DNA of 21,171 nucleotides from Escherichia coli (GTDB lineage Bacteria; Pseudomonadota; Gammaproteobacteria; Enterobacterales; Enterobacteriaceae), in assembly GCF_003334355.1 (NCBI RefSeq), contig NZ_QOWP01000047.1; one strand, given 5' to 3'. Shown in pieces: positions 1,642 through 5,161 of the stretch. The first letter of the stretch is position 1. Every line of letters begins with the position of its first letter. Both the position numbers and the translations under genes were made by a program. The notes beneath the pieces were generated by a model that saw nothing but the letters and a program-made list of their open reading frames with translations, was not told where the DNA came from and did no database searches.

Positions 1642-2361
1642 ATGGATTTTTTTAGTGTGCAGAATATCCTGGTACATATACCAATAGGGGCAGGCGGTTA
1701 TGATCTCTCATGGATCGAAGCGGTAGGCACGATCGCCGGGTTGCTGTGTATTGGCCTTGCCAGTCTGGAGAAGATCAGCAACTACTTCTTTGGCCTGATC
1801 AACGTCACCTTGTTTGGCATTATTTTCTTTCAGATTCAGCTGTATGCCAGCCTGCTATTACAGGTGTTTTTCTTTGCCGCGAATATTTACGGTTGGTATG
1901 CGTGGTCGCGACAAACCAGTCAGAACGAGGCGGAGTTGAAAATTCGCTGGTTGCCATTGCCGAAGGCACTCAGCTGGTTGGCGGTTTGCGTTGTTTCGAT
2001 TGGTCTGATGACGGTATTTATCAATCCGGTGTTTGCATTTTTGACCCGCGTGGCAGTCATGATCATGCAAGCATTAGGATTACAGGTTGTGATGCCTGAA
2101 CTGCAACCGGACGCTTTCCCGTTCTGGGATTCATGCATGATGGTGTTATCTATCGTGGCAATGATTCTGATGACGCGTAAGTATGTGGAAAACTGGCTGT
2201 TGTGGGTGATTATTAACGTGATTAGCGTCGTTATTTTTGCACTTCAGGGCGTTTACGCCATGTCTCTGGAGTACATCATCCTGACCTTTATTGCGCTCAA
2301 CGGCAGCCGGATGTGGATCAACAGCGCACGTGAAAGAGGCTCACGCGCGCTGTCCCATTAA
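1642..2361 (+). CDS. pnuC: Nicotinamide riboside transporter PnuC
   Basis: 239 aa hydrophobic multi-helix ORF recognised as E. coli PnuC; GGGGGA ribosome-binding site 6 nt upstream; 37 bp downstream of nadA, consistent with a nadA-pnuC operon. Confidence 0.95.
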
Positions 2362-3299
2362 TGGTGATGATGTGAATGGCCAGACACCCCTTCATTCAGG
2401 TGGCAGTCTGGCCCATGACAAGGTTGATATTCCATCTGAATGGTGGCGTGCTCAATCTGATAGTGATCCATCAGGTAGTGTTGGATCTGATCCAACAAGG
2501 CATCGTGATCGTGTGGCGGGATCACCTGCACATGCAACGTCATCACCGGCTTCTCGCCTACCATCCATACATGTACATGGTGCACATTGCGGACTTCCGG
2601 GATTTCCCGGCACATACGACGCTTCAGTTCAGCGATATCCAGCGATACCGGTGCACCTTCAAGTAATTCATTCACGCTATCTTTCAACAGTCGCCACGCG
2701 CTACGCAGAACCAGAAGCGACACCAGTATCGAGAGAATGGGGTCAGCAGGTGTCCAGCCAGTCCAGATAATAATCAACGCGGCAATAATAGCCCCAACCG
2801 AACCCAGCAGGTCCCCGAGCACATGCAGTGCCGCTGCTCGTACGTTGAGGTTTTTCTCTTCGCTGCCGTGATGAAGTAACCAGAAAGAAAGTATATTTGC
2901 CAGCAACCCAGCCACGGCAATTGCCATCATCATGCCGCCCTCGACCGGACGCGGCGTGCGGAAGCGTTCTATCGCCTCCCAGACAATCAAAATGGTAATT
3001 ACCACGAGGGCTATGGCATTCACAAACGCCGCGAGCGTGGTCAGTCTTAGCCAACCGAAAGTGTGGCGAATGGTGGGAGGACGACGTGAAAATTGCACGG
3101 CGAGTAGGGCGAAAAGCAGGGCGGCAGTATCGGTCAACATATGACCCGCATCGGCCAGCAATGCCAGAGAACCAGAAAGAAAACCACCAACGACTTCTAC
3201 CAGCATAAACCCGGCAGTCACGCCGAAAGCATACAACAAGCGACGAGCATTATTATCTTCTGGCAGGTGTGAGGACGTGTGTGAGTGTGAGTGCGCCAT
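2358..3299 (-). CDS. zitB: Zn(II)/H+ antiporter of the cation diffusion facilitator family, ZitB
   Basis: 313 aa ORF with His-rich N terminus ([11 protein letters not shown]) and C terminus (HSHHHH) and CDF-type transmembrane core; recognised as ZitB (YbgR). AGGGA ribosome-binding site upstream of the ATG at 3299. The 3' end overlaps the pnuC stop by 4 nt. Confidence 0.95.
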
Positions 3300-3360
3300 G
3301 ACGAGTCATCCCTTAATTATTCTCACTTAACTTTATGACATCATACTGCTTTTAGAAGTG

Positions 3361-3391
3361 AAAAATTAAAAGGGAGAGACTCCGCTCTCCC
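3361..3391 (-). terminator. Intrinsic terminator downstream of ybgS
   Basis: Stem GGGAGAG (3372-3378) / CTCTCCC (3385-3391); on the minus strand the hairpin is followed by a U-rich tract (complement of AAAAATTAAAA at 3361-3371). Confidence 0.7.
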
Positions 3392-3412
3392 ATTATTGGC
3401 TATTTTGCAGGG

Positions 3413-3793
3413 TTACTGCGTGGTACCGTCGGTTTTGGTATCGACATCATTATTGATGCCATCACCGGTTTGTACCTTTTTATTGATATCCGGACAGCGA
3501 CCATCTTTGCACATGGTGTTCTTGTGCTCTTCATCTTTGGTCATTCCGTCATTGTTCATTGAAGAACCATCCGAATGCAGCATTGTGCCGCCAGAACCGG
3601 TATTTACCCCGTTATTGTCGACGTTATTTGGCGCGACATTTTCACGGGCGTCAGGGGCTACCTGGCCCGCATCAGCTGCGGCGTTTGCCTGGCCGTTATT
3701 AGTTTGCGCTCCGCTATCGGCAGCCAGTGCGGCACCGCTGGCAAGGCTTAGAGTGGCAGTCAGAAATAATGTGGCCAGTTTTGTCATTTTCAT
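3413..3793 (-). CDS. ybgS: Uncharacterised secreted Asn/Asp/Gly-rich protein YbgS
   Basis: 126 aa ORF with a good ribosome-binding site (AACAGGAGCATCCT-ATG) and a signal-peptide-like N terminus ([26 protein letters not shown]); the mature part is low-complexity, rich in N/D/G/T. Recognised as E. coli YbgS. Confidence 0.9.
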
Positions 3794-4020
3794 AGGATGC
3801 TCCTGTTATGGTCGTTATGTCGGATAACCTCTTCCAACAGTGCATTTGCAGGTGAATATAAGGCATTGGTTTAAGATTTCAGCCAGGTTATGAAACGCAG
3901 CAGAGAATCTTGAAATAATTAACAAACAAAGGAGTTACAGTTAGAAATTGTAGGAGAGATCTCGTTTTTCGCGACAATCTGGCGTTTTTCTTGCTAATTC
4001 CAGGATTAATCCGTTCATAG

Positions 4021-4038
4021 TGTAAAACCCCGTTTACA
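4021..4038. promoter_or_regulatory. TyrR box (TGTAAA-N6-TTTACA) in the aroG promoter
   Basis: TGTAAAACCCCGTTTACA is a perfect match to the TyrR box consensus, about 70 bp upstream of the aroG ATG; aroG is a known TyrR-regulon member. Confidence 0.8.
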
Positions 4039-4108
4039 CATTCTGACGGAAGATATAGATTGGAAGTATTGCATTCACTAAGATAAGTATGGCAACACTG
4101 GAACAGAC

Positions 4109-5161
4109 ATGAATTATCAGAACGACGATTTACGCATCAAAGAAATCAAAGAGTTACTTCCTCCTGTCGCATTGCTGGAAAAATTCCCCGCTACTGAAAA
4201 TGCCGCGAATACGGTTGCCCATGCCCGAAAAGCGATCCATAAGATCCTGAAAGGTAATGATGATCGCCTGTTGGTTGTGATTGGCCCATGCTCAATTCAT
4301 GATCCTGTCGCGGCAAAAGAGTATGCCACTCGCTTGCTGGCGCTGCGTGAAGAGCTGAAAGATGAGCTGGAAATCGTAATGCGCGTCTATTTTGAAAAGC
4401 CGCGTACCACGGTGGGCTGGAAAGGGCTGATTAACGATCCGCATATGGATAATAGCTTCCAGATCAACGACGGTCTGCGTATAGCCCGTAAATTGCTGCT
4501 TGATATTAACGACAGCGGTCTGCCAGCGGCAGGTGAGTTTCTCGATATGATCACCCCACAATATCTCGCTGACCTGATGAGCTGGGGCGCAATTGGCGCA
4601 CGTACCACCGAATCGCAGGTGCACCGCGAACTGGCATCAGGGCTTTCTTGTCCGGTCGGCTTCAAAAATGGCACCGACGGTACGATTAAAGTGGCTATCG
4701 ATGCCATTAATGCCGCCGGTGCGCCGCACTGCTTCCTGTCCGTAACGAAATGGGGGCATTCGGCGATTGTGAATACCAGCGGTAACGGCGATTGCCATAT
4801 CATTCTGCGCGGCGGTAAAGAGCCTAACTACAGCGCGAAGCACGTTGCTGAAGTGAAAGAAGGGCTGAACAAAGCAGGCCTGCCAGCACAGGTGATGATC
4901 GATTTCAGCCATGCTAACTCGTCCAAACAATTCAAAAAGCAGATGGATGTTTGTGCTGACGTTTGCCAGCAGATTGCCGGTGGCGAAAAGGCCATTATTG
5001 GCGTGATGGTGGAAAGCCATCTGGTGGAAGGCAATCAGAGCCTCGAGAGCGGGGAGCCGCTGGCCTACGGTAAGAGCATCACCGATGCCTGCATCGGCTG
5101 GGAAGATACCGATGCTCTGTTACGTCAACTGGCGAATGCAGTAAAAGCGCGTCGCGGGTAA
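4109..5161 (+). CDS. aroG: 3-deoxy-D-arabino-heptulosonate-7-phosphate synthase, Phe-sensitive
   Basis: 350 aa ORF recognised as E. coli AroG (MNYQNDDLRIKEIKELLPP...), full length. Confidence 0.96.
   Translation: MNYQNDDLRIKEIKELLPPVALLEKFPATENAANTVAHARKAIHKILKGNDDRLLVVIGPCSIHDPVAAKEYATRLLALREELKDELEIVMRVYFEKPRTTVGWKGLINDPHMDNSFQINDGLRIARKLLLDINDSGLPAAGEFLDMITPQYLADLMSWGAIGARTTESQVHRELASGLSCPVGFKNGTDGTIKVAIDAINAAGAPHCFLSVTKWGHSAIVNTSGNGDCHIILRGGKEPNYSAKHVAEVKEGLNKAGLPAQVMIDFSHANSSKQFKKQMDVCADVCQQIAGGEKAIIGVMVESHLVEGNQSLESGEPLAYGKSITDACIGWEDTDALLRQLANAVKARRG

Follow-up and report, generated by a model that had tools for sequence, protein, structure and literature searches.

YbgS of Escherichia coli, an abundant and disordered periplasmic stress protein with conserved motifs that may act as a hydrophilin-like protectant

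Among the described systems closest to the E. coli protein YbgS, the metal sponges of the SilE/PcoE type are, like YbgS, disordered periplasmic proteins of ~100-120 residues with conserved Met and His residues. Hydrophilins are recognized by their composition, with a Gly content above 6% and a mean hydrophilicity above 1 (Garay-Arroyo et al. 2000, cited in PMC5437024), and top-down mass spectrometry (MS) of colonies has detected YbgS together with YciG, YmdF, and YjbJ (PMC5594050). The MXKDX proteins are periplasmic Met-rich hypochlorite scavengers, homologous to MsrX of Azospira, and in Brucella the gene of an MXKDX protein is found beside msrQP (bcrXQP) (PMC8315932). In NCBIfam, these proteins are represented by TIGR02953, "pentapeptide MXKDX repeat protein", with a curated membership cut-off of 41 bits. 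The processing and regulation of ybgS have already been published; the gene nevertheless stands among the unexplained "y-genes" of E. coli, though it is a core gene under strong selection.

The window that we analyzed is a stretch of 21,171 nucleotides of E. coli DNA, and it carries ybgS (b0753, WP_000784351.1) on its minus strand at 3413..3793, with an ATG start, 126 codons, and a TAA stop, as defined from the list of open reading frames, Pfam, and the RefSeq annotation. The encoded protein is identical to the RefSeq entry and matches the Pfam family PF13985 "YbgS-like protein" over its full length (model 1-124/124, E=8.6e-62, 207 bits); the Pfam scan of the E. coli protein returned no other family. 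UniProt P0AAV6, which is b0753 of E. coli K-12 and a member of PF13985, has the same chromosomal position as the gene in the window, and the name ybgS proposed by the first-pass annotation agrees with both the Pfam match and RefSeq. The neighbors in the window are zitB (2358..3299, minus strand) and aroG (4109..5161, plus strand, divergent from ybgS), and the gene order in strain ER1709 is nadA, pnuC, zitB, ybgS, aroG, gpmA, galM, which bears out the place between zitB and aroG that the same annotation had given. A 651-bp region containing ybgS is 100% identical at the DNA level to many E. coli chromosomes, and the gene was found in all 5426 of 5426 complete E. coli genomes. We therefore regard its identity with the catalogued ybgS, a core gene of the E. 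coli chromosome, and its anatomy as described here as near certain. Seven matches to "plasmid" copies were rejected, the records being chromosome-sized (0.28-4.9 Mb) and filed as plasmids. A 143-aa antisense frame at 3396..3827 (plus strand), open in only 16% of the orthologues, was discarded as an artefact and not a gene, and an Rfam scan of both strands from 3000 to 4400 gave nothing meaningful (MicX, at 17 bits against a gathering score of 75).

The first 24 residues of YbgS (3722..3793, minus strand) have the layout of a Sec signal peptide, with a basic n-region, a hydrophobic core (GRAVY +1.15), and an A-L-A cleavage site, and they contain no lipobox. The mature protein, devoid of the 24-residue signal peptide, was detected by top-down MS in two independent studies, both of which inferred a Cys71-Cys76 disulfide (mature numbering) from MS/MS (PMC8629258; PMC5594050). 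In precursor numbering, this bond closes the loop C95-K-D-G-R-C100 (3494..3511, minus strand), whose feature assignment draws on the MS/MS result and on the invariance of its residues. The monoisotopic mass of the mature protein calculated from the window, with the disulfide and one deamidation, is 10457.57 Da, compared with the 10457.58 Da reported, and the measured mass fits cleavage after residue 24 only, while the neighboring sites do not fit. YbgS leaves the cytoplasm through the Sec pathway, with signal peptidase I cleaving the precursor after Ala24. The signal peptide recognized in the first-pass annotation is thus upheld by the sequence layout, by the cleavage seen in top-down MS, and by the mass. 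In overnight colonies, YbgS is a prominent species together with HdeA, HdeB, and YahO (PMC8629258; PMC5594050), and in outer-membrane vesicles of a tolA strain it is enriched among the periplasmic cargo, together with OsmY.

The composition of the mature protein is strongly biased. Its 102 residues include N 14.7%, D 12.7%, G 12.7%, A 9.8%, and T 9.8%, so that Asn, Asp, and Gly together make up 40% of the chain, and it has no Phe, Trp, or Tyr. It is hydrophilic and acidic (GRAVY -1.15, net charge -8, pI 4.4, 16 Asp plus Glu) and contains 2 His, 4 Met, and 2 Cys, both of the latter in CKDGRC. A charge-hydropathy plot places the mature protein on the disordered side. The AlphaFold2 model built from our alignment of 88 sequences, which is shallow in diversity, has a mean pLDDT of 51.3, a pTM of 0.12, and zero residues at or above 70, and a profile search of PDB sequences gave no match at E<=1. 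These predictions agree in describing YbgS as intrinsically disordered apart from the six-residue disulfide loop. The earlier description of a biased, probably disordered mature part rich in N, D, G, and T therefore fits the composition, the charge-hydropathy plot, and the pLDDT of 51, and no fold or family speaks against it, as no PDB relative was found and YbgS is the only Pfam family matched.

Expression data from several studies place ybgS within the general stress response. In O157:H7, its expression is 82-fold RpoS-dependent, and it has been assigned to the Crl regulon. It belongs to a set of genes that osmotic shock induces and whose expression is lower in an HU double mutant. It has also been described as a hub gene up-regulated across several stresses, acrylic acid induces it 5.4-fold, and its Klebsiella homologue was reported as differentially expressed in a study of the OmpR regulon. 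The RpoS-dependent transcription of ybgS goes up in stationary phase as well as under stress, osmotic stress included, and overnight colonies contain the protein in abundance. The first-pass annotation had named a lack of cleavage and a lack of expression as the findings that would speak against a secreted protein; the MS detection and the RpoS-dependent expression provide evidence of both cleavage and expression. A different kind of evidence comes from Salmonella adapting to an IncHI2 plasmid, in which ybgS was mutated repeatedly and its deletion improved the competitive fitness of plasmid carriers; that study puts ybgS among antioxidant genes.

Our best guess for the function, held tentatively and with somewhat less than even confidence, is that YbgS is a periplasmic, hydrophilin-like stress protectant. 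This reading draws on the composition and predicted disorder of the mature chain, its osmotic and RpoS-dependent induction, and its abundance. The mature protein would be a highly hydrated, polyanionic, and disordered chain that helps the envelope to tolerate water loss and the stresses of stationary phase. Rather than a folded active site, it would use its conserved short motifs, the N-terminal APNNVDN block and the stapled module HKNxMCKDG[RK]CPD, to make contact with ions or with client and partner molecules. Compared with the hydrophilin thresholds, mature YbgS has 12.7% Gly, and its mean hydrophilicity is 1.15 for the mature chain and 0.71 for the precursor, so that the outcome depends on the chain considered. 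These thresholds are compositional and do not prove a mechanism, and the literature examined contains no report of a protective activity of YbgS or of a deletion phenotype under osmotic or desiccation stress. The gain in fitness upon ybgS deletion in Salmonella counts against this reading, as it shows a cost and not a benefit. The very strong conservation of the motifs and of the disulfide loop also fits specific binding better than a generic "shield".

This conservation is distributed along the protein in blocks. After the signal peptide, a conserved N-terminal block comprises residues 25-64 (3602..3721, minus strand), in which N37 and P55 are invariant and N64 is nearly so among the 88 sequences, with a dN/dS of 0.06. 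It is followed by a variable linker rich in Gly, Ser, Thr, and Asn (residues 65-82; 3548..3601, minus strand), which includes a GTMLH motif and is delimited by the length variation of the orthologues, ranging from 13 to 56 residues through in-frame indels. The conserved C-terminal module (residues 83-107; 3473..3547, minus strand) has a period-5, MxKDx-like organization and is defined by its dN/dS of 0.028, by column conservation, and by matches to MXKDX profiles; its family consensus is GM[TS]KDE[IV]HKNxMCKDG[RK]CPDxNKKV. Within this module, C95, D97, G98, and C100 of the loop C-K-D-G-[RK]-C are invariant in 88/88 sequences, in line with the two C-terminal cysteines in CKDGRC pointed out by the first-pass annotation, and the HKN motif is nearly so (H90 in 85/88, K91 in 87/88, and N92 in 85/88). 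M84 is conserved in 83/88 sequences and M94 in 76/88, the latter being replaced by Gln in 9/88. The C-terminal tail (residues 108-126; 3416..3472, minus strand) ends in TKTDGT[TS]Q, has a dN/dS of 0.045, and was delimited with the help of column conservation, its residues K120, D122, G123, T124, and Q126 being at least 90% conserved among the 88 sequences. Over 327 pairs, the Nei-Gojobori dN/dS was 0.066 overall and 0.028 in the C-terminal module, values that are approximate with dS near saturation. The codon comparisons thus point to strong purifying selection on ybgS (dN/dS about 0.07), which together with the invariant residues speaks for a real function, and the alignment indicates that the protein is not merely a low-complexity chain and that conserved blocks flank a variable linker; both results are new here. 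Accordingly, the label "low-complexity" from the first-pass annotation stands as far as the biased composition is concerned, while the notion of a merely low-complexity protein is contradicted by the conserved motifs and the C-terminal dN/dS of 0.03.

The family appears to have a narrow distribution. Only 61 YbgS clusters, many of them fragments, came out of an exhaustive HMMER search that covered 1.84 billion representative proteins, and 163 relatives were found when 100,044 species were scanned with one genome each; 80 loci were kept. All of these belong to Enterobacteriaceae or close relatives, except for one record labelled Chryseobacterium that looks mislabelled, and PF13985 is matched by all 88 aligned relatives. 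On these searches, the YbgS family is confined to Enterobacteriaceae and close relatives, which is new here. The order gpmA, aroG, ybgS, zitB, pnuC is found in 79 of the 80 loci, the exception lying at a contig end, and ybgS is divergent from aroG in 80/80 genome loci as well as in five divergent metagenomic or genomic loci. In three of these five divergent lineages zitB is not beside ybgS, being absent or replaced, while the other two keep it. In the loci compared, the adjacency to aroG is invariant and that to zitB is not, which is a further new result. Directly after ybgS, two divergent lineages carry genes for a LuxR-type response regulator and a hybrid sensor kinase with a periplasmic domain of the solute-binding type.

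These patterns bear on a second explanation, which we regard as rather unlikely, namely that YbgS is a disordered protein that uses short linear motifs to bind one specific partner in the periplasm or membrane; possible partners would be enzymes, sensor domains, or envelope polymers. YbgS would then act as a regulator, inhibitor, or adaptor, with the CKDG[RK]C turn and the APNNVDN block as its recognition epitopes, a role to which we give the same low likelihood. Such binding is favored by conservation concentrated in short blocks joined by a linker that is free to vary from 13 to 56 residues, by the four loop residues C95, D97, G98, and C100 kept in every one of the 88 sequences, and by the module dN/dS of 0.03, and the response regulator and hybrid sensor kinase directly after ybgS in two divergent lineages offer a further hint. 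However, YbgS has no known partner, E. coli and most genera lack the two-component genes at this place, and the abundance of the protein in colonies suits a bulk role better than that of a stoichiometric regulator.

The transcription unit of ybgS could be delimited more firmly at its end than at its beginning. An intrinsic terminator, found by scanning, lies at 3362..3391 (minus strand), 21 nt past the stop codon, and consists of a 7-bp G+C-rich stem with a 6-nt loop (GGGAGAG-CGGAGT-CTCTCCC) followed by the T-run TTTTAATTTT; of 81 orthologous loci, 77 have an equivalent hairpin and T-run, their loops differing in sequence. ybgS is monocistronic, the conserved terminator standing between it and the zitB gene that follows downstream on the minus strand. 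Since aroG is divergent, the promoter of ybgS must lie in the 315-bp spacer between the two genes. A consensus scan gave, as its best match, a candidate sigma-70-like site, CTGAAA-16-TATATT (3855..3882, minus strand; 9/12 matches), which we rejected as an established promoter, its -10 element not being conserved between genera, and a sigma-S promoter could not be placed from sequence alone. Thus, the suggestion of the first-pass annotation that the gene has its own promoter and terminator holds for the terminator, kept in 77/81 loci, while the promoter is required by the divergent aroG and was not located. The Shine-Dalgarno sequence AGGAG (3800..3804, minus strand) is placed 6 nt before the ATG, within an ACAGGAG that is invariant in 15 genera. 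It is part of a conserved 48-nt leader, TGCACTGTTGGAAGAGGTTATCCGACATAACGACCATAACAGGAGCAT (3797..3844, minus strand), that was recognized in the 15-genus alignment, in which several further upstream blocks are also conserved beyond the leader. The leader may form a weak hairpin involving the Shine-Dalgarno sequence; in the fold obtained with RNAalifold and RNAfold, TGCACTGT pairs with ACAGGAGCA, which holds the Shine-Dalgarno sequence (-12.3 kcal/mol, z -1.9), and RNAalifold found almost no covariation across the 15 genera. We regard this hairpin as a possible, weak lead only.

A third explanation, which we judge unlikely and which takes up the metal binder named as one option in the first-pass annotation, is that YbgS is a periplasmic buffer of cations or metals, functionally linked to the zinc exporter ZitB encoded beside it. 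Hard cations would be bound by Asp and Asn, and Zn or Cu by the conserved Met and His. Its acidic nature, with 16 Asp plus Glu, the conservation of M84, H90, and M94 in 83, 85, and 76 of 88 sequences, respectively, and the ybgS-zitB order in 79/80 loci from named genomes are compatible with this idea. However, the whole block is collinear in all these close relatives, which makes the synteny little informative, and divergent lineages lose or replace zitB while ybgS stays by aroG; the adjacency of ybgS and zitB is therefore better understood as the collinearity of close relatives than as an obligatory link. The conserved terminator between the two genes also weighs against a functional connection, as does the disulfide that joins both cysteines in vivo, owing to which they are not free thiolate ligands. 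The protein has only 2 His and 4 Met and no PROSITE pattern for an EF-hand, families such as ZraP and CopL match only weakly (E>0.1) and only in the signal peptide region, and what is known of ybgS regulation involves RpoS and osmotic stress but no metals. The metal-binder idea and a link to zitB are thereby weakened.

A further line of evidence concerns the likeness of the C-terminal module to the MXKDX repeat proteins. The E. coli protein matches TIGR02953 with E=0.098 and 12.6 bits, below the cut-off. In ten orthologues, which scored 12-18 bits, this model was the top NCBIfam match in 8/10, with 14.6-18.4 bits and always at residues ~75-104, and the best score in the family was that of a divergent member, P0141 (E=2.8e-6, 27.2 bits), likewise below 41. 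TIGR02953 is the sole recurring non-trivial NCBIfam match of the family; weak matches to Asr, Spy, CpxP, ZraP, PsiF, and CycA were rejected, as all of them cover the signal peptide region. The C-terminal half of YbgS can be read in period 5 from MLHSD (GSS) on, with about 3-4 degenerate units. All 4 Met of the mature protein fall at position 1 of these units, 3 of them with Asp at +3 (P=0.006, from shuffles), and most family members have Ile, Val, or Met at position 89. For a direct comparison, we fetched MXKDX proteins with a synthetic probe and aligned 17; six were verified (63-91 bits), four of which are in the alignment. With hhalign, a comparison of the whole YbgS and MXKDX alignments was uninformative, with only the signal peptides aligned, while that of the mature parts matched a segment of YbgS with SMSKDAMSKDAMAKDAMSKDG over 21 columns (52% identity, P ~3e-4, probability 31-42%). 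An HMM of the mature MXKDX regions gave a median of 20.4 bits for the YbgS family and 18.7 bits for the E. coli protein, compared with -0.1 +/- 2.5 bits for composition-preserving shuffles of E. coli YbgS (maximum 15.3 in 2000). On these profile comparisons, the resemblance between YbgS and the MXKDX proteins, which is new here, depends on residue order and is reproducible but short.

By score, repeat number, Met content, and gene neighborhood, YbgS falls outside the MXKDX family, while its small size and signal peptide fit. Met makes up 3.9% of mature YbgS and ~20% of true members, whose arrays have 8-12 units, and no msrPQ or ECF sigma gene was found near ybgS, the neighbors being zitB, pnuC, aroG, and gpmA. 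A fourth explanation, which we hold to be quite unlikely, is that YbgS is a reduced relative of the MrpX/MsrX type whose Met residues are sacrificially oxidized by hypochlorite or other oxidants and recycled by MsrP. It draws on the Met register (P=0.006), on TIGR02953 as the top match in 8/10 orthologues with P0141 at E=2.8e-6, on the hhalign match of the mature parts, and on the HMM scores, with a family median of ~20 bits compared with -0.1 +/- 2.5 for shuffles, as well as on the description of MXKDX proteins as hypochlorite scavengers (PMC8315932) and on the grouping of ybgS with antioxidant genes in the Salmonella study. However, the family scores of 12-27 bits are far under the 41-bit cut-off, and the hhalign probability is just 31-42%. 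The low Met content would also give each YbgS molecule a small scavenging capacity, M94 is Gln in 9/88 sequences, the msrPQ and ECF sigma genes are missing from the vicinity, the MXKDX proteins have no Cys loop, and short repeats can arise by convergence. The link to the MXKDX proteins is thus a hypothesis, with common ancestry or convergence as its source, and we doubt that it reflects function. It is similarly improbable that the C-terminal module is a shortened, disulfide-stapled descendant of MXKDX methionine-repeat peptides. In that case, YbgS would either correspond in enterobacteria to the periplasmic oxidant sinks of the MrpX type or be a client dedicated to MsrP, and an abundant, RpoS-controlled orphan would be tied to periplasmic methionine redox cycling.

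The legacy annotation of YbgS as a homeobox-like, DNA-binding regulator has practically no chance of being right, its one support being the inherited name "putative homeobox protein", which is refuted by the export of the protein, with its signal peptide removed and its acidic, disordered chain located in the periplasm or vesicles, and by the absence of a homeodomain or any other non-YbgS Pfam domain (E<=0.001) from all 88 family members. This label, whose rejection is new here, persists in UniRef names and misled a proteomics paper published in 2025.

In stationary-phase colonies, YbgS reaches amounts that allow its peak to be used as a MALDI biomarker. A periplasmic protein that is disordered, acidic, and controlled by RpoS could plausibly contribute to the tolerance of the envelope to osmotic, oxidative, or starvation stress, and only few disordered proteins of the periplasm have been given a defined role. 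In practical terms, our analysis has modest value: it bears out the reading of the first-pass annotation, removes a misleading homeobox or DNA-binding label, and finds the link to zitB to be weak. It also leaves three testable hypotheses, each with its motifs, for YbgS as a hydrophilin, as a partner-binding protein, or as an MXKDX-like methionine sink.

Set against the known systems, YbgS shares different features with each of them. The small proteins Asr, HdeA/HdeB, Spy, CpxP, and OsmY are, like YbgS, exported by Sec and induced by stress, but the similarity is found only at the level of the signal peptide; Asr is basic and HdeA/B, Spy, CpxP, and OsmY are folded, whereas YbgS is acidic and disordered. 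Compared with SilE/PcoE, YbgS has far fewer Met/His motifs, does not belong to a metal-resistance operon, and is not metal-regulated as far as is known. The MXKDX proteins MrpX/MsrX of Azospira suillum and BcrX of Brucella are also small periplasmic proteins with a signal peptide, and YbgS has the M-x-K-D-x period-5 register in common with them over a stretch of 21 residues; unlike them, it has a Cys-x4-Cys staple, a large N-terminal part rich in Asn, Asp, and Gly, and no link to msrPQ. With the hydrophilins and LEA-like proteins, represented in E. coli by YciG and YjbJ, it shares a high Gly content, disorder, RpoS dependence, osmotic induction, and, as far as the mature chain is concerned, a very high hydrophilicity. 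YbgS differs from these proteins in being periplasmic, in carrying a disulfide loop, in reaching the hydrophilin thresholds only as the mature chain, and in having no sequence homology to hydrophilins of the KGG-repeat or CsbD type.

UniRef entries for the Citrobacter homologues of YbgS are still named "Homeobox protein", and a paper from 2025 treats YbgS as a DNA-binding hub protein because of this inherited name. We rejected the homeobox identity, since a Pfam search of 88 family members detected no homeodomain in YbgS or its relatives. Asn-Gly and Asp-Gly dipeptides, the classical hot spots for deamidation and isomerisation, occur seven times in all in the mature protein (window 3416..3721). 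In top-down mass spectrometry, YbgS has shown a shift of +1 Da, consistent with one deamidation (PMC5594050).

The linker between the conserved N-terminal block and the C-terminal module is enlarged by in-frame Thr/Gly/Ser repeats at four of the orthologous ybgS loci (L060 from Pseudenterobacter timonensis, L053, L025, and L063), while the conserved blocks on either side are unchanged; one such expansion contains TGTSATGTTGTTG in its repeats and brings YbgS to a total of 164 aa. Divergent YbgS proteins include P0141 and P0132, from metagenomic and MAG sequences (loci L082 and L089), and the homologue P0178 (locus L088) has neither cysteine. None of these three loci has zitB downstream of ybgS; its place is taken at L082 and L089 by genes for a response regulator of the LuxR type and for a hybrid sensor kinase (approximately 1030-1070 aa), and at L088 pnuC follows ybgS directly.

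Two further loci are unusual. L014, on a contig labelled Chryseobacterium sp. 18061 (CACSKA010000002.1), has the gpmA-aroG-ybgS-zitB-pnuC order typical of Enterobacteriaceae, with 92% identity to E. coli for AroG and 90% for PnuC, which probably means that this assembly bears a wrong label or contains contaminating DNA. In Citrobacter amalonaticus AUH_CA_2023_1 (L043), a frameshift past the Cys loop leaves a 111-aa product whose C terminus is aberrant, and shifts also appear in the zitB and pnuC matches from tblastn; this ybgS would be either a pseudogene or the product of an assembly indel error.

Directly 5' of the ybgS start codon, a leader of 48 nt (window 3797..3844, minus strand) is kept across about 15 genera, and its ACAGGAG is invariant in the alignment. 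Within this leader, which contains two GGA motifs, TGCACTGT can base-pair with the Shine-Dalgarno region (MFE of -12.3 kcal/mol, z of -1.9), with almost no covariation in the pairing. These features may point to control of ybgS at the level of translation. A 143-aa ORF with a TTG start (window 3396..3827, plus strand) is antisense to the entire ybgS; we rejected it as a gene and regard it as a chance ORF, because no more than 16% of orthologues keep this frame open.

Conservation is also found in the aroG-ybgS spacer, where the block CTACAATTTCTAACTGTAA (window 3935..3953, minus strand) lies approximately 150 nt 5' of ybgS, hardly varies between genera and is followed by the conserved blocks CAAGATTC, CTGACnTAA, and GGAATCTTTnACCA. 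These blocks may bind regulators or include the actual promoter. Upstream of aroG, a promoter scan chose TTTACA-17-TAGATT at window 4021..4061 (plus strand), and the TGTAAA-N6-TTTACA at this position resembles the TyrR box that overlaps the -35 element in the promoter of aroG.
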